This document shows, piece after piece, positions 45,624 to 60,036 of a stretch of DNA of 64,000 nt. This stretch comes from an uncultured delta proteobacterium (GTDB lineage: Bacteria > Desulfobacterota > Desulfobacteria > Desulfobacterales > Desulfosalsimonadaceae): the NCBI GenBank assembly GCA_963826785.1, contig CAWGYD010000001.1, forward strand, positions 800,001 to 864,000. The letters are read 5' to 3'. The position numbers were made by a program, and so were the translations under genes. The notes below the pieces were generated by a model that worked only from the letters and a program-made list of their open reading frames with translations, ran no database searches and was not told the DNA's origin. Every line of letters starts with the position of its first letter. Position 1 is the stretch's first letter.

Positions 45624-48600
45624 TCAGGCCTCGATTACCTCCCGGACTTTGATCAGCAGCGTTTTTACGGAAAACGGCTTTTGAAGAAAATTAACCCCTT
45701 CATCCAGTACGCCATGGTGGACGATAGTGTTTGCCGTATATCCGGACATGAAAAGATGCTTCAATTCCGGATATAGTGGCATAAGCGCATCCAGCAATTC
45801 TCTGCCATCCATTTCCGGCATCACCACATCCGTGACCAGCAGGTGAATATGCTCCGGGCTGCTTTTGGCCAGGACCATCGCCTCGCTCGGTTTCCGGGCC
45901 GCAAATACCGTGTACCCATGATTTTCCAGAATAGATTTTGCCATATTCAATATGGCCTCCTCGTCTTCCACCAGCAGGATGGTTTCTGTACCGTTCAGTT
46001 GTGAGGCAACCGATCTTTTCGTTGCTGTTTTGACGGGTTGTCCTGCTCCGGGCAGATATATTTTGAAAACAGTCCCTTGTCCGGGTTCGCTGTAGACATT
46101 GATAAACCCGTTGTTCTGTTTGACAATGCCGTACACCGTGGCAAGTCCGAGTCCGGTCCCTTGTCCCACATCCTTAGTAGTATAAAATGGCTCAAAAATG
46201 ATGTCCCTCATTTCCTTGGGAATGCCCGAACCGGTGTCGCTCACTGCCATCATGACATATTTGCCCGGGATGAAGCCGTTATGCGATTCACAGTAGATTT
46301 CGTCAAAAACCACTTTTTCCGTTTCAATGGTCACAGAGCCGACGCCTTTAATGGCATCTTTTGCATTGACCAGGAGATTGGCCAGGATCTGATCGACTTG
46401 AGACGGATCAATTTTCACCGGCCAGGGTTCCGGACATGGCAGCCACACCAGTTCGATGTCTTCTCCGATCATCCGTCTCAGCATTTTCAGCATGCTCGAA
46501 ATCGTCTCATTAATATCAAGAAGAACAGGCAGAGCGACCTGTTTTCGGGCAAACCCTAGAAGCTGCCGGGTCAGAAGCGCTGAGCGCTGGGCGGCATTTA
46601 AGACTTCCTGCAGTTCCCCGATGATGGGTCGGGTCAGATCCCTGCGCTCCAGCATCATTTCGGTATGCCCGATGATAACGCCCAGCATGTTGTTGAAGTC
46701 ATGGGCAATTCCGCCGGCCAGCCGGCCCACGGATTCCATTTTCTGGGCATGCCGGAACTGCTCCTGAAGCACCCGCTGATCGGTGATGTCCCGGGCGGAG
46801 GACAATCCACCGACCGGTTCTCCGTTTTCATTTTTCAGCACCTTGCACCACCAGGCCAGAAGCCTTTTCTTCCCATCTTTCCGGCGCTGCCAGCTCTCCA
46901 AATGGATCACCTCCTCCTTGACGTCAAACAACGGCTGCGCCCGGTCATAGGTGTCCTGTTCCCCCTCGAAATAGAACGCGGCTTCCCTGCCGATGACATC
47001 ATCACCGAAAAAGGCATAGCCGGCCGGGTTCGCCCAGGTATAGACCTTGTTGATATCCACTTCCATGACAATATCGGGAATGGCGGACAAGAGCGCTGCC
47101 TGGCGGCTGGTTAAGTTACGGAGCGTCTCTTCCGCCCGCTTTTGGCCCACAATCTCCCAGGTGGCATCTGCAAGATGGGAGATGATTTCGATATCCTTTT
47201 CAGTGTAATCCTCGGGCTTGTTGCCCACCCCCAGGATGGCAACGACGAGATCGTCCCTGATAATGGGGACCACAAGCTCCCGCACGACGGTGGCGTGTCC
47301 CTCGGGCATCCCCTTTTTGTGCAAAAGGATATTATGATCGTTGTGGATGACCGGCCTGCGCGCATGAACGCAATCCACCCACACGCCGGCATTGTCGATG
47401 TCGTAATGCAACCCTTTGCCCTCGGCCTTGCAGAATTCATTCAGTGTGCGGGTGGACCAGGTCTGAAGCGAAATGGTTTTTTGGTCGGGTTCGAGAAAAT
47501 GATAGAATCCGATGGGGCTGCGGGTCATGGAACCCAGTTCATCCAGTGTTTTCTGCAGCAGTTCCCCGAGAGAGTGGTCATTGGCATATTCCAGCAGGCA
47601 GAGTCTTGCATGGATCAGGTTTTCGATTTCACGCTCGCGAACCTGATCCCGGAATACCAGCACCACACCGGCAATCTCACCCTCGGCGTCCCGGATGGGG
47701 GCGCCGCTGTCCGTGATCGGGATCTCGTCTCCTGCTTTTGTGACCAAAAGGGTATGATTGGCCAGGCCCACCACCCGCCCGCTCTTCAATACTTTTTGGA
47801 TCGGGTTTTCCGCCATTTCCCGCGTCTTTTCGCTGATAATGCTGAAAACCGATTCGATGGGGTTCCCCTGCGCGTCCTTTTCCGTCCATCCCGTCAGCTG
47901 CTCGGCGATCGGGTTGATCCGGCGCACCCGCCCCTGAACATCCGTGGTGATCACTGCATCGCCAATGCTGTATAATGTTGTCTTGAATTCCTCATGGGTC
48001 TCGACGCGCTCCTTCTCGGCGGCATAAAGTGCCTCGAATGTCCTTTTTCCCCTGTGCTTGTAGTAGAAAGAGAGACCGGCACCCGACAGAAGAATCAGCA
48101 TGAGGGTGAGAAACCCGATCAGATAGGTCTCCCGGCGAACGTCCGCAAAGATCTCATCTGAATCGATTTTACAGATCATGCACCAGGAGGCGCCCGGAAT
48201 GCTGCGGATATCGGTCAGCACGGCCACGTCCCGGTAATCCCTGCCTTCAAACAGCCCGGTTTGCCCCATTACCGCGCGGGTGGCGGGAAGGTCGGATGCC
48301 GACACCGGCTTTGTCAGGGAAAGGGGCGGTTCGGATCGATGGCGAAGGCGGTTCAAGAACAGCACGTTGTTGCCTTCTTTTCGCACCAGGAGGGATTCTC
48401 CGCTCCTGCTGGGCAGGGGCCAGGATTGAATCATCGGGTAAAGAAACGTTTCCGGGTTCACCCGCAGGATGAGAACGGCCAGCGGACGGTTTTGATCATC
48501 CATAATCGGCGCGGCCACATCCAGATGCACCTGGCCGCAGACCGGGCAGCGGAAGAAATCACCGAAGAAAGCATCATCGGAAGATACGGCAAAATGAACC

Positions 48601-49046
48601 AGCTCGAGGGACTGGGGCTCAAGTTTGGTCAGGCGGGGATCCAGGGAGAGCAGAATGCGGCCGTCAGGGCCGGCCAGCATTATATTTTCATAGTCATACA
48701 TGTCCTGCAGCATGCTGAGGCCAGTCCGCATATCCGCGCGCAGGGCCGAATCATTCGGATGAAGGATGAACTGGTGGACCGCATCGCGAACAAAAGGGGA
48801 GGCGGAATGAAGCCTTGCATCGGAGATGCGCTCTTTTCTCCATGAGATGATCTGATCGCTTTTCAGATCTGCAATGGCTTTCAGGTCGTGATATTTTTCA
48901 TCCCTGATGAGGTCGGTTTCATGTTTCTGGAATAGATATCCGGCTGCGATAAATGCAATGGCAACCACGGCAAACAGCAGCATCAACCACCGTTTGGAAT
49001 CGCCATCGTTTTCCGGTGGTGCCCGGTTTTCGCTGGTCATATCCAA
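45624..49046 (-). CDS. Membrane hybrid histidine kinase (Cache-PAS-GAF-PAS-HK-REC)
   Basis: Two TM helices flanking a periplasmic domain, SIGDAVITTD PAS, GAF, AHDFNN, receiver. Confidence 0.92.
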   Translation of the reverse strand: MDMTSENRAPPENDGDSKRWLMLLFAVVAIAFIAAGYLFQKHETDLIRDEKYHDLKAIADLKSDQIISWRKERISDARLHSASPFVRDAVHQFILHPNDSALRADMRTGLSMLQDMYDYENIMLAGPDGRILLSLDPRLTKLEPQSLELVHFAVSSDDAFFGDFFRCPVCGQVHLDVAAPIMDDQNRPLAVLILRVNPETFLYPMIQSWPLPSRSGESLLVRKEGNNVLFLNRLRHRSEPPLSLTKPVSASDLPATRAVMGQTGLFEGRDYRDVAVLTDIRSIPGASWCMICKIDSDEIFADVRRETYLIGFLTLMLILLSGAGLSFYYKHRGKRTFEALYAAEKERVETHEEFKTTLYSIGDAVITTDVQGRVRRINPIAEQLTGWTEKDAQGNPIESVFSIISEKTREMAENPIQKVLKSGRVVGLANHTLLVTKAGDEIPITDSGAPIRDAEGEIAGVVLVFRDQVREREIENLIHARLCLLEYANDHSLGELLQKTLDELGSMTRSPIGFYHFLEPDQKTISLQTWSTRTLNEFCKAEGKGLHYDIDNAGVWVDCVHARRPVIHNDHNILLHKKGMPEGHATVVRELVVPIIRDDLVVAILGVGNKPEDYTEKDIEIISHLADATWEIVGQKRAEETLRNLTSRQAALLSAIPDIVMEVDINKVYTWANPAGYAFFGDDVIGREAAFYFEGEQDTYDRAQPLFDVKEEVIHLESWQRRKDGKKRLLAWWCKVLKNENGEPVGGLSSARDITDQRVLQEQFRHAQKMESVGRLAGGIAHDFNNMLGVIIGHTEMMLERRDLTRPIIGELQEVLNAAQRSALLTRQLLGFARKQVALPVLLDINETISSMLKMLRRMIGEDIELVWLPCPEPWPVKIDPSQVDQILANLLVNAKDAIKGVGSVTIETEKVVFDEIYCESHNGFIPGKYVMMAVSDTGSGIPKEMRDIIFEPFYTTKDVGQGTGLGLATVYGIVKQNNGFINVYSEPGQGTVFKIYLPGAGQPVKTATKRSVASQLNGTETILLVEDEEAILNMAKSILENHGYTVFAARKPSEAMVLAKSSPEHIHLLVTDVVMPEMDGRELLDALMPLYPELKHLFMSGYTANTIVHHGVLDEGVNFLQKPFSVKTLLIKVREVIEA

Positions 49047-49451
49047 ATCTCTCCTAAGGGTAAACTTTAAATTTTATTATATATTTTTAATACAACTTAA
49101 GATTGGACAAAGTCAACGGGATAAAAAATAGTGAGGAGAAGCTGTCATCTTCTTCGTTACAAATATCACGATTCGGATATGTTTGGTTACCCAAGCCGAA
49201 CGACGAGACTGATGCGCCAATATACATCGGTGACCCACCTTACAGTCGGCAAGAGATGCCGCTATCGAAAAGGTCTGAGAAAGAATATCTGAAAAATCTC
49301 ATTTCTCACACCAATGGTGATTTTGAACCAGCCATTAATATCTTCTGGCCTTTGCCAGTCTCACTTATATCACCTGCACAAAAAATATGGCATCAAGCAT
49401 CGATAAATTTAACCTGCGACCAGCAATCCTCAGATCTAAACATTGTTAATG

Positions 49452-49600
49452 TTTCCTTCCATATAAGAATTTTCCTGTTTAAAAGGAAAATTCCTCCCGA
49501 AAAATGTTTTTGAGGCTTGAACCGTGTTCTCTTATTTGTGATAAGTTATTTAATTTATTCTAATTACACTGAAATAAATTGGTTTGGCACAGGTTTTGTA
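49452..49600 (+). promoter_or_regulatory. Sigma54 promoter module A (upstream box plus TGGCAC-AGGTT-TTGTA)
   Basis: -24/-12 at 49585-49600; upstream block shared with module B. Confidence 0.62.
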
Positions 49601-49676
49601 AGTTTGTCCTTCAATCCATAGAATATCCTTTTGAAGCAGCAGCCGAACTTCATTGTACTTGGGACGGGAGAATTTT

Positions 49677-51407
49677 GTGAAAACCACTTTTGCCAGAAAA
49701 AAAATGATTTTTCTGATTCGCCTGCTAGTGATCGTCACCACTGCTTATTTCATTCTTTTCACCCCTTCCAGCAACCAAATGCAATTTTGGGGCTATATCT
49801 TTATAGGGGTTTATGTATCAACCAACTGTTTGGTCGCGCTACTTCCCAATCGTCTTTTTTACCAGGATAAATTATTTTACACGCTTATTCTCTGCGATAG
49901 CATTATGTTACCGGCAGGAATTTACCTTTCCGGGTATGTCGGGTCCGACTTATACCTGATGTATTTTTTCATTATCTCACTGACCACAATGGGGGCTCGC
50001 TTTGAGTATTTAATGCTCAATACCATCATTTTTTCGATTATTTATGGATCAATTCTATACCAAAACGGGATGCTGGCGGGTTTGTCTGCCGTTAGTTACG
50101 GCCTAAGGATACCATTTATCATTTCAATCACCACATTTTACGGCTTTCTCGTTACTACCCGGATAAAGGATAAGGAAGACAAGATTCGTGAAATACAAGA
50201 AAGATATGAGCAGATCGTCCAGGCGACTGATGTGTTGATCTGCATTGTCGACGATAGAGCCAGACTGATCTTTGCCAATCAAAAATTCGTCACCATGTAC
50301 AGCAGGGTAGAAGATAATAAAATTCTCGGAAAATTCTTCTCTGACTTTCATTCACCCGGGGATTCAAAAGATACAATAGACTATATTCATGCGGTGTATC
50401 AAACAAACAAACAGGTTCAGTATGAAGCTTACGATCCATCAAATCAAAGATGGTTTTCAAATACGCTTAGTCCTGTAAGAAATCCCAATGATCGAAACGT
50501 TTATGCAGTCAGTATTATATCGAAAGATATTACAGAACGGATTAAAAGAGAAAAGCAGCTCAATGATACCATCATACTGCTCAGACGGACCCGGGATCAG
50601 CTGATTCAAAAGGATAAAATGGCTGCACTCGGCCGTATGGCCTCCGGCATTGCGCATGAAATCAGGAATCCATTGGAAATCATTTCCATGGGAATGGATT
50701 ATATCGACTATAACATTCCGAATGATAACGTTATGCTTCGGCAATCCATAGAAAAAATCTATAATGCGATAACCCGCGCCAATAACATTATCAGAGATGT
50801 TCTATCTTTTTCTCGAAAATCAATTGTAAAAATATCAAATATCCCACTTATTCCCCTGCTGGACAACACGCTTTCTCTTACCAAGCATAACCTGCGGAAA
50901 ACCGGAATCACTCTCAAGCGCGAATACGCATCTGAAACAATGGAAGTCGCAGCGGATCACAATATGCTGCAGCAGGTATTTTTGAACCTGATCAACAATG
51001 CCGTTGATGCAATGCAAAACCGGGCAGAAAAACAATTAACGATTCGCGTTTACAAACAGAAAGTATATCAGATCGACTATAAGGCCGGCCGCCGGCGATC
51101 CGATTTCTTTAAAATTGGGGATGAAATTGTGGTGGTGGAAATTTCAGACACCGGAAGAGGGATACCTAAAAGCGAACTTCCCAAAATTTTTGAACCATTC
51201 TTTACGACTAAATCTACCAGTGGGGGCACAGGATTAGGCCTCAGCCTCTGTCATATGATCATTGACAGATTAAAGGGCGTTATTGATGTCGAGAGCAGTT
51301 TAGAAAAGGGGAGTACCTTTTCTGTAAAGATTCTGCCTGCAACTAAAAAACCAAAGATCAGAACAGGAATTGAAAATGCAGCCCAAATGGAAAATCGTCT
51401 TAATTGA
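49677..51407 (+). CDS. Membrane PAS sensor histidine kinase
   Basis: Multi-TM N-terminus, PAS, IAHEIRNPL, NLINNA, DTGRG, GTGLGL. Start GTG 49677 or ATG 49704. Confidence 0.9.
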   Translation: MKTTFARKKMIFLIRLLVIVTTAYFILFTPSSNQMQFWGYIFIGVYVSTNCLVALLPNRLFYQDKLFYTLILCDSIMLPAGIYLSGYVGSDLYLMYFFIISLTTMGARFEYLMLNTIIFSIIYGSILYQNGMLAGLSAVSYGLRIPFIISITTFYGFLVTTRIKDKEDKIREIQERYEQIVQATDVLICIVDDRARLIFANQKFVTMYSRVEDNKILGKFFSDFHSPGDSKDTIDYIHAVYQTNKQVQYEAYDPSNQRWFSNTLSPVRNPNDRNVYAVSIISKDITERIKREKQLNDTIILLRRTRDQLIQKDKMAALGRMASGIAHEIRNPLEIISMGMDYIDYNIPNDNVMLRQSIEKIYNAITRANNIIRDVLSFSRKSIVKISNIPLIPLLDNTLSLTKHNLRKTGITLKREYASETMEVAADHNMLQQVFLNLINNAVDAMQNRAEKQLTIRVYKQKVYQIDYKAGRRRSDFFKIGDEIVVVEISDTGRGIPKSELPKIFEPFFTTKSTSGGTGLGLSLCHMIIDRLKGVIDVESSLEKGSTFSVKILPATKKPKIRTGIENAAQMENRLN

Positions 51408-51780
51408 TGATGAAGAGGATTTTTGTTTTTTTGTCCGGGAGAACCTGAAGAACAGCGGTCTTTTTGATGTATTCATTGCAACAAACGGGAAATACGGCAT
51501 CGGATTGGCAATAACAGAAAAGCCCGACATTATTCTTCTGGATCTGGTCATGCCGGACATGTCCGGGGAAGATGTCGCAGATATGCTAAAAAGGTCACCG
51601 GAAACCTCAAGCATACCCATTTTATACCTCACAGCCCTGGCAACTGATGATGACATTGAAGATATTACCATTGGAAATCGATATATTCTTGCCAAACCGG
51701 TAAGAACAAAGAAACTTATCGATACGGTTCAAAAAATTTTGTTGGATTCGCAGACGCGTTCAATCTCTATCTCGAATTGA
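51376..51780 (+). CDS. Single-domain response regulator
   Basis: LIDDE, LLDLVMPDMSG, LTA, KP. Confidence 0.9.
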   Translation: MQPKWKIVLIDDEEDFCFFVRENLKNSGLFDVFIATNGKYGIGLAITEKPDIILLDLVMPDMSGEDVADMLKRSPETSSIPILYLTALATDDDIEDITIGNRYILAKPVRTKKLIDTVQKILLDSQTRSISISN

Positions 51781-51856
51781 ATTTTCATTTCCGTTTTTTA
51801 CAGTTATGCGTGCGGGGTAATCGGCGTTTGTGTATACGTCATGAATTTTTCCAATC

Positions 51857-52004
51857 TTTCCTTCCGTATGGGAATTTTTCCTGCAACACAAGAAATCTGC
51901 TCCAAGTACAATTATTTCGTGATTGATTTTTCACGTGCTTATTGGAGTAACGATTTGGAAATACATAATGTTATTAATTTAAAAGTGTTGGCATAAATTT
52001 TGTA
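51857..52004 (+). promoter_or_regulatory. Sigma54 promoter module B (upstream box plus TGGCAT-AAATT-TTGTA)
   Basis: -24/-12 at 51989-52004; upstream block shared with module A. Confidence 0.62.
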
Positions 52005-52021
52005 AGGTAGTCATTTAGGGA

Positions 52022-53245
52022 ATGAAGAATTTTAACCAGGAGATCGACATGGCCCCTCAATGTGCGGAAGGAAAGCTGGAAAACATGGATGATAATTTGG
52101 CAAAGCAAGATGCATTGCCCGAAGAGACGTTTATTGGCAAAACCAGTGAGGTCAAGGAGAAGATCATGCCTGAATTGGCGTTTATAGAGAAAGAATCCCG
52201 GATCAGGAGCGCTAATCCGATAAAGATTTTGGTCGTGGACGATGAATCCGCTATTCGGAAAATGCTCACGCACCTTTTGGAGAAGGAGGGGTATGACTGC
52301 GTTACCGCCGAAAATGCCGGATCAGCCATTCGCTACCTGTCCGCTCATTCGGTCGATATGGTGATCAGCGATGTTTCCATGCCGGGAAAAACCGGGATAG
52401 AACTTCTAAAGCATATCAAAATAAACTTTCCGACGATTGCCACCATCATCATGACAGGGGTCGGCAGCCAGAATATTGCCGAAACTGCAATCTCCATGGG
52501 CGCATACGGCTATCTGTATAAGCCATTTCAGAAGCGCCAGGTCTTGGCCAATATTTCAGATGCATTACGCCGCAGGTCAATGGATCTTCAAAGCCAGTTT
52601 GAAATGGAGCATCTGGAGCAGATCATCGATGAAAATAAGCGCGATCTCTCCACCTTTAATGATAAAATCACAAAAATTCTTGAGAGCATCATCCGGGCCA
52701 TGTCCATGGCAATTGAATCAAGGGACCCATATACCGCCGGTCATCAGCACCGGGTGGGAAGACTGGCTGCGGTGGTCGCTTCTGAAATGGGTTTTTCCGA
52801 GGAACAGACCCAGTATATCCGAATGGCCGGCATTATTCACGATTTGGGCAAAATTTCGGTGCCGGCCGAGATCCTGAGCAAGCCGGGCAGGCTCACCGAA
52901 TCCGAGATGAACATCATCAAGGACCATCCCCGGATCGGCTATCAGATCTTAAAAGAGATCGAATTTCCTTATCCCCTGGCCCAGATCGTTTATCAGCATC
53001 ATGAGCGGATAGACGGTTCAGGATACCCCCAGGGACTTACCGGAGACGAGATTCTCCCCGAATCCAAAATCCTGGCGGTGGCGGATGTGGTGGAGGCCAT
53101 GATGTCGCACCGGCCCTACCGGCCATCTCTGGGGATCGAGGCGGCCCTTGGGGAAATTAAGAAACACAGGGGCGTATGCTTCGATCCGGCGGCGGTGGAC
53201 GCTTGCTGCCGGGTATTTTCAAACGACAGCTTTCAATTCGAATGA
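52022..53245 (+). CDS. Response regulator with HD-GYP phosphodiesterase domain (RpfG-like)
   Basis: REC (VVDDE, ISDVSMPG), RDPYTAGH, HDLGK, HHERIDGSGYP, RPYR. True start may be further downstream. Confidence 0.92.
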   Translation: MKNFNQEIDMAPQCAEGKLENMDDNLAKQDALPEETFIGKTSEVKEKIMPELAFIEKESRIRSANPIKILVVDDESAIRKMLTHLLEKEGYDCVTAENAGSAIRYLSAHSVDMVISDVSMPGKTGIELLKHIKINFPTIATIIMTGVGSQNIAETAISMGAYGYLYKPFQKRQVLANISDALRRRSMDLQSQFEMEHLEQIIDENKRDLSTFNDKITKILESIIRAMSMAIESRDPYTAGHQHRVGRLAAVVASEMGFSEEQTQYIRMAGIIHDLGKISVPAEILSKPGRLTESEMNIIKDHPRIGYQILKEIEFPYPLAQIVYQHHERIDGSGYPQGLTGDEILPESKILAVADVVEAMMSHRPYRPSLGIEAALGEIKKHRGVCFDPAAVDACCRVFSNDSFQFE

Positions 53246-53457
53246 TCATCAAAAAAGATCAGCGGATCAAGACCATTTTCGACAGGCATCAGCTGTTTGA
53301 CCAGGTGAAAGCGGTTATGAACGTTGAAGTATAAGCATAATTTCTTGCTCTCGGATCATCAGGGAAACATGTAATTAAGGGCTTTGCGATTGCGGTATGT
53401 GTTTTGTCTCTATTTCGGTTCAGCTTATCTTTAGAGTTGGTGTAACAGGAGGTAACC

Positions 53458-53712
53458 ATGGATGATGGTTCTGAAAAACAAAGAGTTTTAATTTTCACCC
53501 GTCAATTTGAGATTACGGGCAACCTTCATATCCTATACGGGGTCAGGCTGACCGACTATATGAATGAGTCAAAAGAATTCATAGCGTTAACGGATGTTGA
53601 AGTAAAACGTCCAGATAGTGAAGCGGTCGTATCCTCGTCTTTTTTAAATATAAATAAAGCAGATATTGAAATTATCATGCCGGCGCATTTAGTGACGCAA
53701 ACCACTCCCTGA
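53458..53712 (+). CDS. Small conserved hypothetical protein
   Basis: RBS AGGAGG; ITGNLH...RLTDYMN...FIALTDV...INK.DIEII. Confidence 0.7.
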
Positions 53713-53737
53713 TGATGGGCAACTAAGGACACGTTCC

Positions 53738-55642
53738 ATGGCAAAATTAGATGAACTGTTCAGTGCCGCGATTAACGTGAATGCATCTGATATACATATT
53801 GTAGCGGGTGAGCCCGTCATCATAAGGCATTTGGGAAAGTTGAAAAAAACTGACTGCGCGCCGCTGTCGATGACGAAATGCCGGGAAGTTGTTTTTGAAC
53901 TGTTGTCCGAGCCGCAGAAAAAAGAGTTTGAAGAAAAATTTCAACTGGATTTTGTGTATGAGATTTCCGGTATTGGCCGTTTCCGGGGTAGCGTTATGCA
54001 GCATCAACGCGGGATGAGTGCCGTGTTTCGCGTTATTCCGCCGAAAATTATACCCCTGGATGCCCTCGGATTACCGGACACTATAAATGAAATTCTGGAT
54101 AATCATCAGGGGATCATACTGGTCACCGGCGCAACCGGGCAAGGCAAATCTACTACACTTGCGGCAATGATCGATTATATCAATGAAAACCGCTCACACC
54201 ATATACTGACGATCGAAGATCCGATTGAATTTGTCCATCCGTTCAAAAAAGGGGTGGTCAATCAACGACAAATTGGAACCGGCACATTACAAGTAGCGGT
54301 TTTCGGAGTTTTGGCCAAAGACCGGTTTGCCCTTCCGGTGGATGTCCGGTTGTACCTGCCTAAAAAATGGACCGATGATCCGGAGCGCTGCGACAAGGCA
54401 GGCATCCCTGAAACAGCGCGCACATTTCGCACCAAAGAGGAGCTTGCCCTTGAAATCGTCGCCCATGCCAGAGAAAATGATCTGCATTATGCCTGGGTGG
54501 GGGCTGACGGCGGATATGGAAAAGGTCCTGGATTTTGTATCGCCCTGGATCGGATGGGTGAACGCTTTGTAGTGGATCTGCACTCGGATTTTCGAGTTTA
54601 TGTGGAAAAACCGAACCCCTATCTTCCTGTAAGCCGAAAAGGTCGGAAGTTTACCCGCTATCGTGTTGATGAAAAAAGCATAGAGGTCAAAGATGCTGTT
54701 GAACGGATGGGCCTTTCCGTCCAGCCCATTCTGGAAGTGAGAAATACCACGCGTGGAATACTCAAAATGCGGGCGTTGCGCATTCCCGTTTATATTTGGG
54801 AAAATGGAGACGGCATGATTCATCGGTATTCTCTCATTGCGACACAGACGCTGGGCAAAAATCCCGAAACAAAAATATCGCTCTCCAACGCGCCGGAAAC
54901 GCTTGACCTGAAAACCATTGCATGGATGCAACTTCAACGATTCTGGGTAGAGCGGGCCTTTGAAGATGCAAAAAGCGAGTGCGGCATGGCCGATTACCAA
55001 GTCCGTAAATGGAGAGCGTGGCATCATCATATGGCTCTGGTGATGATGGCAATGCTGTTTATGCTCAATGAACGGATAAGACACAAAGACACATATCCCC
55101 TGTTATCATGTTCGGACATTGAAGAACTTACCTATGCCAATGCATTAAAAAGCGCGCTTCGTCAGGACCCCGACGTTATCATGATCGGTGAACTCAGGGA
55201 CCTGGAAACAATCTCAATGGCCATAACAGCTTCGGAAACCGGACATCTTGTCATTGGAACCCTGTCAACATCCAGTGCCCATAAAACAGTGGAGCGGATC
55301 ATCGATTCGTTTCCGGCAAAGGAACAGAATCAAATCCGATCGATGGTGAGCGAAACGTTGAAAGGCATTATTACGCAACGCCTGGTGCCGGCAGTGGATG
55401 GCAGTAAAATGGAACTGGCTCTTGAAATTTTAATTGGCACATTGCCTATGGCCAACTTAATCCGAGATGAAAAGACCTACCAGATTCCATCCATGATGCA
55501 GACCAAAAAAAAAGAAGGAATGATCCTGATGGATGAATCACTGATGATGCTGATGCAGGATGGAAAAATTACGGCAAAAGATGCCATGGCCAATGCGAAT
55601 AAACCGGATAGATTCAAAACATATCTGGACAAAACAAACTGA
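53738..55642 (+). CDS. pilT: PilT/PilU-family ATPase carrying an in-frame 280-codon IS701 transposase-derived insert
   Basis: [22 protein letters not shown]...[10 protein letters not shown] | insert | [40 protein letters not shown]. Confidence 0.88.
54287..55129 (+). mobile_element. Internal fragment of an IS701-family DDE transposase (no IRs, start or stop)
   Basis: QVAVF...[21 protein letters not shown]...FRTKEELAL...WVGADGGYG...[36 protein letters not shown]. Confidence 0.9.
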
Positions 55643-55691
55643 ACCGGTCTGACAGCAAGTTCATATCCATATCTATAACAGGGATGAATGA

Positions 55692-56735
55692 ATGACGAAA
55701 CAGCTTCATCAATATTTCACGGAAATGGAAGAGAAGGGCGCAAGCGACCTGCATATGGTGATCGGATTGCCCCCCATGATCCGGCTCAACGGTGAACTGT
55801 TACCACTGGACCATCCAGTCATTACACCGGACTCGAACAGGGAGATTCTCTATGATATCCTGCTGCCCGAGCAACAGGCCCGGCTTGAGGAAAACCTCGA
55901 TTTTGACATGGCCTATGAGCTTGAAAACGTCGGGCGGTTCCGGTGTAATTTTTTCTATCAGCACCGCGGCATCGGTGCGGTATTCAGAATAATTCCTTCA
56001 AAAATATTGACTTTGGATGAGCTTTCGCTTCCCGAGGTTCTTAAAACCATTGCTGAATATCGGAAGGGCCTTGTTTTGGTTACCGGACCCACCGGAAGCG
56101 GGAAATCAACGACGCTGGCGGCGATCATCGATTACATCAATGACAGAAGGGACGCTCACATCATTACAATAGAAGACCCGCTTGAATTTGTTCATCAAAA
56201 CAAAAAATGTCTGATTACACATCGCGAAATAGGCTCTCATGCGAGAAGTTTTGGTGAGGCATTAAAAGTTGCCAGCCGGGAAAATCCGGATATTATCCTT
56301 GTGGGCGAAATGCGGGATCTTGAAACAATTGCGCTCGCTTTGACCTGTGCGGAATTGGGCATCCTGGTATTCGGAACATTGCATACGAACAGTGCGGCAC
56401 GAACCATAGACCGAATCATTAATGTCTTTCCCACAGACCAACAGGCCCAGATCAGGACCATGCTGTCCGAATCCATCCTGGCGGTCATTGCTCAGCAGCT
56501 CATCAAAACCAAAACTGGCGGAAGGTGTGCGGCCAATGAAATCCTGATCGGCTCGACGGCCCTGGCCAATATGATCAGGGAAGGGAAAATTTCGCAGATC
56601 GGTTCGCTTTTACAAACGGGCATTTCGAAGGGAATGCAAAGCATGGACAGCCATTTGTCGAGATTGGTCAAAGAAAATAAAATAACCAAGGAATCCGCAT
56701 ATGAAAAAGCCATCGAAAAAACGCTTTTTTTATAA
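55692..56735 (+). CDS. pilT: Type IV pilus retraction ATPase PilT
   Basis: GASDLH, GPTGSGKSTT, EDPLEF, RENPDIILVGEMRD, GTLHTNSA, ANMIREGK. Confidence 0.93.
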   Translation: MTKQLHQYFTEMEEKGASDLHMVIGLPPMIRLNGELLPLDHPVITPDSNREILYDILLPEQQARLEENLDFDMAYELENVGRFRCNFFYQHRGIGAVFRIIPSKILTLDELSLPEVLKTIAEYRKGLVLVTGPTGSGKSTTLAAIIDYINDRRDAHIITIEDPLEFVHQNKKCLITHREIGSHARSFGEALKVASRENPDIILVGEMRDLETIALALTCAELGILVFGTLHTNSAARTIDRIINVFPTDQQAQIRTMLSESILAVIAQQLIKTKTGGRCAANEILIGSTALANMIREGKISQIGSLLQTGISKGMQSMDSHLSRLVKENKITKESAYEKAIEKTLFL

Positions 56736-56762
56736 GGACATGTCATCTTAGGAAAATTGAAA

Positions 56763-58481
56763 ATGGAAAATCCAGCTTTTAATGAACTAAACATTGCGGC
56801 GCAAAGGCTTTTTGGGGCGCTTGAAAGCAATGGTTTTGATGCTGCCAGTAATTTTATAGATGAACTTGAGCAGTTGAACAACTGGCGTAAAAGCCTCTTG
56901 GATTTCACCAACGATTTGGCCGTTGCCATGGGTAGTTTTCACATTAACGATACGGCCACCAACAAGAGTCATATTCATTCTTTTGTCAAAGGGATCAGCA
57001 CCATCACCGCCATTCCGACCAAGGACAGCGATAAAAGTATCGTTATCCGACACCGCGGATTGAGCCCATCGGACAAACATACGGATCAGGAGTACTTTTT
57101 AAATAATGACTATGTGATATCCGTCGGAGATTGCGTTATTGATAACCAGCAACTGGATTATCTTGTAAAATTCGGGATCATGGATGCCAAAGAGTTGGCC
57201 GAGCAATTGAAAAAAACATTTCAGTTTTTTCACATGGCAAACATTTACATCATCACCATCCGTTATAACAACTGGGAACTCAAGGAGCAGCAAACGGTCC
57301 ATGACGCGCTGATGGCATGGGGGCAATATTTTACGGGGTATAAGAAAGGGTTTGGTATTGTTTTAGATGAAACCGGGCGGCCGAACGCCGGCCTGACGAT
57401 TCTCGCGGGATTAAATAAACTGAAACTGGAAAAATTTCAGGCGGTGGCGGACAAGGTCCAGAAACTTGTGAGCCAGGACAAATCCGGGATGAGGTTTAAA
57501 GGCGTATACAGCTTATATGATGCCATTTTCGCTATTGACGAGTTGAAATCAAAATTTAAGAAATCGCCCATCGAGATCAACAATGACAAATATATACAGG
57601 TATGGCAAAACTGCTTTGACAAAAACGGGCGGTTTAACCGAATTAAGTTTAATCAACACCGGCGTGTTTTTCAGGACTGGAAAAACGCCTTTTATGTCTT
57701 CTGGATGGATCTAAAATCCGTGATCATCGCTGAAGACAGGGAAACCATTCTCAACTGCATCATCCGGTTTATCGCCGACAGCAAATTGCTCAATGAATAT
57801 GTGGATTATATTCTTAAAGATTTTTATTATTACCCGTTGAATCTTCAATTCTCCGACAGGGATTCATTGTTTGTCGCCAACCTGCTGTTATTTAAGAACT
57901 ACGTGAACATCTCCTATGACTTCGGTCATACGCCGGGGGAAGTCCTTTTTTCCGAGGACCCGTTAAATGAGGATTTGGTGGAACGGCTGCACACTGAAAT
58001 CAATGACAAATGGGCGGAAAAATTTTTACAAAAGCATGTCACTGTCAAAAAAAACTTACATCAGGCGCTTAAAGAGATTGAAGAGCAGGACAATATCATG
58101 CCCCCTCCGTTTTTGATCAATGTGATGCGGGAGCTTTACATTTTTTTAACACTTGTTTGGGGCAAGGAGTTTAAATCGATTGTTTTAGATACGGTGAAAG
58201 AATATGCCAATCCAAAATCAGATCTTTACTGTTCTGAAAACAGCCCAAAGGTCCTTTTGCCGCTTTTGCAGTTTTTTCAGATTACCATTTTATGCCTGAT
58301 CAAGCTGGGTGATGAAAGTGACGTCGATTTGTTAAATTCCATCCGGTTCAGGGAGACCGATTTTTTGTCCATGAAAGGGGTTCTTCCGTCTGAATCATCG
58401 CCTCAAAAAAAATTGATTCACAAAATAATGAGCGTGGTAGCAGAGGGGGTCGTTTCAGTTGGGAAAAAACCGGGGCCTTAA
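56763..58481 (+). CDS. Large hypothetical protein
   Basis: About 572-aa uninterrupted ORF right after pilT; no motif recognised. Confidence 0.75.
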   Translation: MENPAFNELNIAAQRLFGALESNGFDAASNFIDELEQLNNWRKSLLDFTNDLAVAMGSFHINDTATNKSHIHSFVKGISTITAIPTKDSDKSIVIRHRGLSPSDKHTDQEYFLNNDYVISVGDCVIDNQQLDYLVKFGIMDAKELAEQLKKTFQFFHMANIYIITIRYNNWELKEQQTVHDALMAWGQYFTGYKKGFGIVLDETGRPNAGLTILAGLNKLKLEKFQAVADKVQKLVSQDKSGMRFKGVYSLYDAIFAIDELKSKFKKSPIEINNDKYIQVWQNCFDKNGRFNRIKFNQHRRVFQDWKNAFYVFWMDLKSVIIAEDRETILNCIIRFIADSKLLNEYVDYILKDFYYYPLNLQFSDRDSLFVANLLLFKNYVNISYDFGHTPGEVLFSEDPLNEDLVERLHTEINDKWAEKFLQKHVTVKKNLHQALKEIEEQDNIMPPPFLINVMRELYIFLTLVWGKEFKSIVLDTVKEYANPKSDLYCSENSPKVLLPLLQFFQITILCLIKLGDESDVDLLNSIRFRETDFLSMKGVLPSESSPQKKLIHKIMSVVAEGVVSVGKKPGP

Positions 58482-58625
58482 GAGCAGAAACAGTCAATGG
58501 ATATGCTGTTTTCGTGCTTTGTTCAATTGAGATAGTTCAATAATCCAAACGGCTCAGCGGTATGATAAATAAATTAATTTCAAGTGTTGAATTTGCCCAG
58601 AATCATGTAAGGCGCGCGGGTTCCC

Positions 58626-58922
58626 TCAATCTCCATATAGGTCCATTTCCGGATAATATTTCTCCGCGCAACCCGGGCAGATACCATGGCTGAATTCGGC
58701 CCGTGAGTGTTCGCTGATATATGATTCAATCTGTATCCAATTACCACTTTCAGATCTTATCATTTTACAATGCGAACAGATGGGGAGCAGTCCCTGCAAT
58801 GTTTCAATACGATCCAGGGCGGCCTGCAGTTCCGCATTCCTTTTCGTCAATTTGCGCTGAAGATTGACCAGCTCATTATTCAGGCGGGACAATTCTTCAT
58901 ATGTATCTTCATGTTCGGTCAT
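58626..58922 (-). CDS. Small coiled-coil protein with LPICxxCK...SHGICPxC zinc-type tail
   Basis: YEELSRLNNELVNLQR...LQGLLPICSHCKMIR...W..IE.YI...FSHGICPGC. Confidence 0.8.
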   Translation of the reverse strand: MTEHEDTYEELSRLNNELVNLQRKLTKRNAELQAALDRIETLQGLLPICSHCKMIRSESGNWIQIESYISEHSRAEFSHGICPGCAEKYYPEMDLYGD

Positions 58923-58940
58923 TCCAATGCTCTCGTGATT

Positions 58941-59360
58941 TTATATGTTCGTCATGCGCTGCTGCATGATCATCATTCCATTCAGGTAGGGTTTGATTTC
59001 CATAAATGCCTGATCGGGAATTTTTCTCTCCAACGCATGGGAATACCGTTTTAAGTTGTCCATTACCATTTTTGCGGATACACCATAAACCGGCAGACGT
59101 GTTTTCGCCCATTCCATTTCATTTTCGAGAATACCCCCGGCCGCAAATACCATTGCAGAACGAAGCATGCGGGTCACAAATCCCAGCCCGTTTCGTATCA
59201 TCGGTTCTGCGTCGGCACCCATTGTAGATTGCGGATCATCCTCGGCCATGCAAATTTTGGCCACTTCCACCTCGACCTCGGCACAAACCACATCAAAACA
59301 GGCCAGGGACGCCTCTGATACCGCCTTCGAATCTTTAAACGGACTTTCATTTTCTGACAT
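58941..59360 (-). CDS. Hypothetical helical protein (possibly globin-like)
   Basis: 139-aa ORF overlapping the upstream gene's stop codon. Confidence 0.6.
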   Translation of the reverse strand: MSENESPFKDSKAVSEASLACFDVVCAEVEVEVAKICMAEDDPQSTMGADAEPMIRNGLGFVTRMLRSAMVFAAGGILENEMEWAKTRLPVYGVSAKMVMDNLKRYSHALERKIPDQAFMEIKPYLNGMMIMQQRMTNI

Positions 59361-60036
59361 TTTTTATCCCGCTCTGTATCATTTCATCTGCCAAGCGAAT
59401 GGCCTGCTGAGCGTCTGTTGCCGTTCCATCCGCCCCGATTTTTTGCCACATGGAATCCACATGTAGGAACGTATATCCCCCCACAAATATGGGGATATCT
59501 CCTGTTTGGGGCGAAGCATTTACGGCATGGATCAATTTTTTTGCATCCTCCAGTCGATCGTGCATGGTGACGCTGACGGCAAGCAAATCATATTTCGTCG
59601 ATTCCAGCACACTGACAATGCTTTCACTCGGTGTATTCGCACCAATATAATCCGTGTTCCATCCTTCCATCTCAAAGAAATCCGATAACATGCGCAGGCC
59701 CAGTTCATGAAGTTCACCCTGCACACAGGCGGCAAGCAATCGTCTTCCTTTTGCAGCGCCAGTGAATATTCTGGAATAGAGCATTGACATAATGAGTTGC
59801 GTCGCATTGGTGCAATAATGCTCCTGGCCAACCGATATCTTTCCGGATTCCCAGAGCCAGCCGACCTCGTACTGGACCGGCTGGAAAACATACAGGTAAA
59901 TATCTTTGATGCTGACACCTTTCTCCACTGCCTGCAAAATCAACTCTTTTGACTGACTTGTTTCGCGCGAGAGCAAGGCTTTCAGATACTTGCGGGACAA
60001 TTCGGATAACGGCATATTCGGAGTGATGAACTTCAT
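59347..60036 (-). CDS. Cobalamin B12-binding domain protein (cap plus Rossmann)
   Basis: VGWLWESGKISVGQEH, GELHELG, YIGANTP, SVT, IFVGG, IGADG. Confidence 0.9.
   Translation of the reverse strand: MKFITPNMPLSELSRKYLKALLSRETSQSKELILQAVEKGVSIKDIYLYVFQPVQYEVGWLWESGKISVGQEHYCTNATQLIMSMLYSRIFTGAAKGRRLLAACVQGELHELGLRMLSDFFEMEGWNTDYIGANTPSESIVSVLESTKYDLLAVSVTMHDRLEDAKKLIHAVNASPQTGDIPIFVGGYTFLHVDSMWQKIGADGTATDAQQAIRLADEMIQSGIKNVRK

Follow-up and report, generated by a model that had tools for sequence, protein, structure and literature searches.

A transposase core without ends inside a pilT gene of an uncultured Desulfobacterales bacterium is probably an ordinary IS701 insertion in altered form

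How can the middle of a transposase gene come to lie in frame, without either end of its element, inside the gene for a pilus retraction ATPase from which no base is missing? This question is raised by an open reading frame of 634 aa (53738-55642, + strand, zero internal stops) in a stretch of 64,000 nucleotides from an uncultured delta proteobacterium, here called the window, which corresponds to C1:800001-864000 of the source assembly G000 (4.43 Mb, 11 long contigs, 87.8% completeness). An earlier note on this DNA had listed a domesticated domain, an element removed at the RNA or protein level, an accident buffered by the intact pilT next door, and an assembly or construct chimera as options. 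Of these, the assembly chimera and the buffered accident are the ones favoured by the evidence described below. The locus contains the following features, with positions given in the window:

53458-53712, + strand: DUF6812 gene, first of a three-gene unit (Pfam PF20660, 60.7 bits)
53738-54289, + strand: 5' part of pilT paralogue 1, aa 1-184, with the N-terminal domain, Walker A GATGQGKS (54128-54151) and Asp box TIEDPIE (profile match, 3jvu comparison)
54287-54289, + strand: TTA, the left three bases of the target 4-mer TTAA and the Leu184 codon of pilT (orthologue codons, target statistics)
54290-55129, + strand: 840 nt from the interior of an IS701 transposase gene (QVAVFG...DIEEL) in the strand and frame of pilT, both element ends absent (NF033540, P0025 match)
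55130-55642, + strand: 3' part of pilT paralogue 1, aa 465-634, starting with the last A of TTAA, with RQDPD, Walker B IMIGE and the His-box variant TLSTSS
55692-56735, + strand: pilT paralogue 2, intact, 347 aa, directly downstream (TIGR01420, 456 bits; 72-90% identity to orthologues)

Residues 4-185 and 462-627 of the 634-aa ORF match PilT (Pfam T2SSE; TIGR01420 with 414 bits at a cut-off of 319) and residues 185-445 match the IS701 transposase NF033540 over positions 117-362 of the 363 in the profile (190.5 bits, 193 bits for the insert; cut-off 150). Compared with P. aeruginosa PilT (3jvu), the ORF splits at L183 of the latter. The claim of the earlier note that removal of 840 nt restores PilT was reproduced by script: in-silico removal of 54290-55129 yields a 354-aa protein with 62-83% identity to nine orthologues from relatives, and 83% over 350 aa to the L002 orthologue. 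The rejoined protein has Walker A, Asp box, Walker B and His box, the latter as TLSTSS. It thus resembles the PilT/PilU retraction ATPases (TIGR01420; PDB 3jvu, 6ojx) in having all motifs and in belonging to a tandem paralogue pair, and differs from them by the insert of 280 aa, which falls at P. aeruginosa L183, and by a His box that reads TLSTSS, not TLHT. The insert splits the RecA-like core, with Walker A and Asp box on one side and Walker B on the other, and the ORF and profile matches agree with its earlier description as stop-free, on the same strand and placed between these motifs.

The named homologues of the window PilT come from Desulfobacterales/Desulfobacteraceae MAGs, and the DNA upstream of pilT is also matched in relatives (query 47-890 in G011, G013 and G024). 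Other intact pilT genes in G000 are a canonical pair beside proC on contig C6 and one paralogue on C10. Since the neighbour, the proC pair and the C10 paralogue are all intact, the interrupted pilT is regarded as an accessory gene. Across the alignment consensus of the accessory PilT subfamily, the His box is TLSTSS and not the usual TLHT, and in the relatives seen the accessory PilT is always located upstream of a second PilT. The pilT pair lies in a stretch of lower GC content (window 48000-60000, 40-48% vs. about 55% for the contig) that is rich in signalling genes, namely two histidine kinases, a response regulator, an HD-GYP protein and a cobalamin-binding-like protein.

The insert corresponds to residues 124-405 of the 448-aa transposase P0025 with 81% identity, and at the DNA level it shows 77% identity to an element in L007 that is complete. 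Of the transposase, the IDES Asp region at the N-terminus and the last 43 aa are absent, and the ADGGYG Asp (aa 257, 54506-54508) and the WVE Glu (aa 405, 54950-54952) are kept; these three residues are presumably the catalytic triad of the IS701 transposase. No inverted or direct repeats marking the insert junctions were found. In all these respects the earlier description, which had noted missing terminal inverted repeats, a missing N- and C-terminus and the loss of the first Asp region with retention of the other two residues, proved accurate. At the 15 closest IS701 loci (61-78% identity), the element reaches 504-511 nt beyond the core on the left (measured at 7 loci) and 155-169 nt on the right (at 9). 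At pilT, about 505-512 nt on the left and 158-172 nt on the right (~670 nt) and one copy of the target duplication are missing, and pilT itself loses nothing. According to the accessible part of De Palmenaer et al. (2008; PMC2266710), the IS701 family has a length of 1400-1550 bp and a highly conserved 4-bp duplication. The insert is like this family in its DDE transposase sequence and its conserved, family-type 4-bp target, but unlike its members (relatives ~1.5 kb) it comprises the middle 840 nt only and has no inverted repeats, no target duplication and, with the first Asp region gone, no full D-D-E triad. It is incapable of transposition. The best parent candidate in the searches made is the protein with 81% identity, with none above it. 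A full parent in G000, for which a search had been suggested, was not found; the two other IS701 copies of this genome show ~27% protein identity to the insert, which is therefore not identical to a resident IS.

The break in pilT is located at TTA^ACC, inside a TTAA. At the break codon, the closest of ten orthologues read have ACG TTA AGC (L002), ACA TTA ACC TAT (L003) and ACA TTC ACC (L004), and the empty site would most simply be ACA TTA ACC TAT. The target preference was derived from a survey of IS701 ends at 123 loci (43 + 80), which contained 107 full-length cores and 58 elements with both ends as located by a motif derived here. NTAN flanks were present on both sides in 57 of these 58 relatives, and of the 74 4-mers on each side 59 on the left and 60 on the right were YTAR, several copies per genome being included so that the counts are not independent. 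The 1065-nt rejoined gene contains six YTAR sites, and a random break would fall inside one of them with p about 0.02-0.03. As the break lies inside an IS701 target 4-mer, the spot in pilT appears to have been chosen by IS701 transposition. The left and right pilT flanks sum to one undamaged empty site with a single TTAA. As judged from the sequence, it is well supported that ordinary transposition placed a full IS701 element at this TTAA; its ends would have been lost afterwards. The statement of the earlier note that ordinary transposition does not give this structure is therefore wrong for the placement, TTAA being the element's own target, and right for the loss of the ends, which needs another cause. 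Likewise, its finding of only a TTAC microhomology is correct in that the flanks contain no duplication, but the break is better parsed as the TTAA target, which had been missed.

Two other interpretations of the flanks were considered. The parse CTT ACC, with TTAC as a true duplication, also yields NTAN but requires the loss of an extra nucleotide, and the closest orthologues favour TTA ACC; it was ranked lower. Among the IS701 relatives, TTAC is the flank at 5 of 74 left ends and at 4 of 74 right ends. The Gly in GTGT, which is Asp in most orthologues, was rejected as a sign of damage because it varies naturally: of 61 homologues, two have LGTGTLSY and one has LGVGTLSY.

Among the surveyed elements (L016-L058, L063-L142), identical 4-mers on both sides were observed in only 28 of 58, with the central TA kept in 57 of 58. 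Some flank pairs differ even where the copies belong to one element and to a single genome with long contigs (L021 TTAC/CTAA, L023 CTAT/TTAT). The true IS701 duplication may be TA; the neighbouring base would then have come along from the donor site, and a circle intermediate would be suggested. Part of the unequal flank pairs could be caused by chimeric short-read flanks. One IS701 relative (L031:652-2930) is apparently inserted in an array, with CRISPR-like repeats (CCCCGCGGGCGCGGGGAACAC) on both sides.

In the public protein collection, the 634-aa fusion is represented by one sequence on one contig. No second protein with both PilT and transposase domains was detected among the best 120 of 8000 matches, and among the 27 insert matches of 491-2000 aa no other fusion of a host protein with an IS701 core was present, only the 634-aa protein having a second Pfam family. 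Five of these 27 were read and are transposases with read-through or longer termini. Further PilT-DDE fusions, which the earlier note had thought worth seeking, are thus missing from both sets, and a literature search retrieved, among the papers listed, no description of such a fusion or of an end-less IS core produced by polishing at a heterogeneous IS site. An uninterrupted orthologue (at least 61% identity to P0004), in one piece each time, was found in 20 of 57 genomes of the family at an E cut-off of 1e-95, which the half from G000 itself barely passes and which a more distant split copy could escape. The JGI metagenome contigs contained no exact 24-nt match to the pilT flanks. It had been argued that a real fusion that is unique, unexpressed and identical to a resident IS would be an accident; its uniqueness holds.

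At columns where all other sequences agree, private changes amount to 1 of 154 in the PilT halves (orthologues 0-17), 1 of 195 in the second pilT and 2 of 104 in the insert (relatives 0-8). Because neither decay nor adaptation is visible in either partner, the event should be very recent or should never have occurred in a cell. The insert is as conserved relative to free transposases as those are among themselves, which argues that it has spent no time under a new role. Of the two marks of a domesticated domain, neither conservation at the same site in relatives nor selected divergence from free transposases was found.

Structure prediction was limited by the alignments. With transposase rows, AlphaFold2 assigned the insert a pLDDT of 80-97 over aa 211-400, and the ATPase core was not confident; with PilT rows only, most of PilT was folded and aa 161-464 remained below 50, again as an alignment-limited result. 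The pTM values were 0.49 and 0.51, with low confidence around the joins. Two mixed PilT and transposase alignments misaligned the PilT rows (33-49% identity vs. 65-83% in the PilT-only alignment). A Foldseek search, with a query model limited in the same way, returned only PilT-like ATPases among the matches listed.

Damaged IS copies are present elsewhere in the same assembly, which is of the long-read type. By self-comparison of G000, the region C6:387295-388295 (L143, L158) was identified as a 1001-nt end-less core with 98% identity to the central part of a complete IS1634-like element, the parent being located at C6:697240-698859 and encoding a 540-aa transposase. Roughly 470 and 190 nt of the ends are missing, as judged by eye from the ends of the parent. 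The core is situated in a REP-like array, and its joins contain a few odd bases. It differs from the parent by 21 substitutions (11 synonymous, 8 missense, 2 nonsense) and one deletion, and could be a real, old and decayed remnant. Furthermore, an IS110 copy at C10:259128-260790 splits a small Cys-motif gene, which rejoins seamlessly without it. Compared with the intact copy on C4, the first 100 nt of this element contain 6 substitutions and 30 indel bases, whereas elsewhere 0-4 substitutions per 100 nt and almost no indels are found. Its first 82 nt are shrunk to 51 via about 10 separate gaps, a score that none of 2000 shuffles reached with gap costs of our own choice. The IS110 copy on C6 equals the C4 copy over the first 100 nt. 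The left end of the C10 copy is probably a consensus hybrid, as many scattered deletions confined to the tip would fit averaged reads with and without the element, and we know of no biological process that gives such deletions only at the tip of an element. Since the other IS copies in G000 (two IS701, two IS110 and the IS1634-like parent) are intact at both ends, the damage to IS ends is locus-specific.

General noise in the assembly was estimated by a crude count, true pseudogenes included, which gave frameshift-like breaks at 51 of 676 paralogue-hit loci; an hdrL-like gene contains multiple frameshifts with homopolymer-type breaks. When G000 was scanned for seamless inserts on the basis of paralogues, the pilT locus and three others were recovered, of which two are natural HdrA/GltD-like domain insertions and the third is located at C6:393188-393542. 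HdrA genes with an inserted GltD-like module lie at C6:661308-665792 and C1:62278-66525, the former broken by several one-base indels that resemble sequencing errors. Family searches detected no rve, mutator or IS1182-type transposases in G000 and one long IS66 copy.

Other repeats were noticed in G000. A repeat of ~500 nt with a 103-aa ORF occurs at C3:319638-320156 and in at least six further copies (C1:528095, C5:261525, C5:294105, C5:314819, C8:28194 and C8:22687), bracketed by inverted ends and REP-like CCCCCCTCGAGGGG hairpins, together with five internally deleted derivatives of ~290 nt. The ORF looks GIY-YIG-like in our reading, and the repeat may be a small mobile unit that carries a nuclease and is linked to REP arrays. 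Three 2-kb copies, nearly identical and each with a 582-aa ORF, are located in short palindromic repeats at C10:16653-18647, C5:280845-282841 and C5:304611-306614; their 3' end is presumably group II intron-like.

Which origin of the fusion agrees best with these observations? A working fusion, in which the transposase core with its DNA-binding RNase H fold is tolerated or domesticated on the retraction ATPase, or in which the element is removed at the RNA or protein level, is very improbable. The exact frame on the same strand, the complete set of host residues and the undecayed state of both partners would suit it, as would the folding of the insert as a domain of its own in one of the predicted models. 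Both the domestication and the splicing option of the earlier note nevertheless suffer from the fusion being a singleton and from the 20 close orthologues of the family being uninterrupted, and domestication also from the absence of adaptive changes in an insert no less conserved than free transposases. Like an intein, the insert is the protein of a mobile element that is translated in frame as part of a host enzyme, but it is without ends, catalytically incomplete and unique. Inteins are marked by an N-terminal Cys/Ser, a C-terminal His-Asn/Gln, a +1 Cys/Ser/Thr and a Hint domain. The insert starts with Leu/Gln and ends with Leu, leaving neither an intein nucleophile nor a terminal His-Asn; of the hallmarks only the +1 Thr fits and no Hint family matched in Pfam and NCBIfam, in agreement with the earlier observation that intein termini are missing. 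Moreover, neither AlphaFold2 model predicts a confident join, and the insert separates the Asp box from Walker B within the RecA-like core. Hexameric ATPases of the PilT type require both motifs to bind nucleotides, and in them Walker A, Asp box and Walker B cooperate at the subunit interfaces (PMC5424180). Scarcely credible is a chimera unrelated to transposition, in which foreign IS DNA was joined at a random spot during library preparation or assembly, or which stems from a laboratory construct. It would account for the codon-exact borders and for the missing close parent in G000 (best paralogue 27% identical), but it would leave a break inside the element's own target 4-mer to the small chance calculated above; in addition, the public collection contains the protein in its deposited form, and the host is an uncultured MAG with no close DNA match listed.

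We consider it probable that the fusion is a hybrid of an IS-bearing and an empty allele that arose in the assembly consensus. A complete IS701 of ~1.5 kb would have transposed recently, and probably in part of the population, into the TTAA at codons 184-185 in the orientation of pilT. Long reads of the mixed population would then have been assembled and both alleles blended in the consensus step. Near both junctions the reads of the empty allele would have prevailed and erased the IS ends and one duplication copy; in the middle of the element they would have offered no sequence, so that the IS core was kept. With a duplicated TTAA, an IS-free read could be split at five equivalent points, one of which is TTA^A, and this would explain why left and right flank add up to exactly one empty site. 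The cells would have a 354-aa PilT that is intact or one inactivated by the full IS701, and the 634-aa fusion would not exist. Under this reading the open frame is luck of about 1 in 18 (same orientation and two in-frame borders), at a locus picked by a scan that flags such cases. The consensus hybrid is favoured by the break in the target site, the flanks that equal one empty site, the end-damaged IS copies on C6 and C10, the singleton status and the lack of decay. Against it stand the clean junctions at pilT, unlike the garbled bases at C10 and C6, the stop-free state of the 840 nt and of the four neighbouring ORFs, the lack of a close parent IS in G000, and the C6 core, which differs from its parent mainly by substitutions and fits a real decayed copy equally well. 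The presence of Ku and LigD, which provides a real end-joining route, and an in-frame product of the kind that selection would favour also speak against it. Common polishers use windows of 500 bases; arithmetic with this window size fits the C6 core and places the left loss at pilT near one window, yet the 840-nt core is no multiple of 500, and the lengths at pilT agree with such windows only loosely. Long-read metagenome contigs can hold all or part of the sequence of each subpopulation at one locus, and bases without read support, as reported in the accessible part of 10.1101/2025.04.22.649783. The pilT case resembles these haplotyping chimeras (Fig. 4A/B according to the text of that source) in containing, at a conserved locus, part of a sequence specific to a subpopulation, in a MAG with several end-damaged IS copies. 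It differs in that end-less IS cores at target sites are not described in the accessible part of that source, where the error is defined by read clipping.

A real and recent scar in the genome is rather unlikely. According to this reading, a full IS701 at TTAA was cut at its ends and the end-chewed fragment was resealed by Ku/LigD joining or by two illegitimate deletions; the in-frame outcome was kept by relieved polarity on the second pilT and by the intact other pilT genes, and the 634-aa protein may be made, but as a motor subunit it would be dead or crippled. The clean junctions and the unbroken frame agree with this, as do the other pilT genes that are intact, namely the neighbour, the proC pair on C6 and the gene on C10. 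TTA^A is one of two possible cut positions if the stagger is the central TA, as inferred from the 30 of 58 non-identical flank pairs. G000 encodes two adjacent Ku genes (C3:288458-289691) and LigD (C3:321003-321320), and the capture of DNA fragments in chromosomal breaks by NHEJ, described for Sinorhizobium in the accessible part of PMC6379672, counts in favour of the scar. As in that system, a homology-free fragment could have entered a break and the genes are present; there, however, a supplied cassette was captured at an I-SceI cut, whereas at pilT it would be the trimmed body of the transposon at its own site. The scar has to explain the loss of ~670 nt from the element with zero host bases, although the unfaithful NHEJ junctions in the accessible part of PMC6379672 show fill-in, resection and added bases, faithful joins being common there as well. 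The path via two deletions runs through an unselected intermediate, and the deletion-riddled end of the C10 IS110 is left unexplained. An NHEJ set with several Ku genes was observed here in a probable deltaproteobacterial sulfate reducer.

In conclusion, the pilT locus is an ordinary IS701 insertion whose strange form probably exists in no cell. If the consensus hybrid is the correct reading, long-read MAGs can contain clean, in-frame fusions of a host enzyme with a mobile-element core that enter protein databases. Such artefacts would be recognised by a break in the target motif of the element, flanks that equal one empty site and eroded IS ends elsewhere in the assembly. At the accessory pilT, an IS insertion would then be segregating in the population. 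Should the allele be real, it would document a rare natural loss of IS ends by end-joining that restores the reading frame, and it would offer a direct test of the tolerance of the PilT hexamer for a large domain beside its active site. That an end-trimmed IS701 was re-ligated in frame by NHEJ and that the PilT with its 280-aa passenger of transposase fold still assembles into the pilus motor is improbable in our estimate; if true, it would be a one-step route, caught at birth, from the knock-out of a gene by an IS to a new protein domain.
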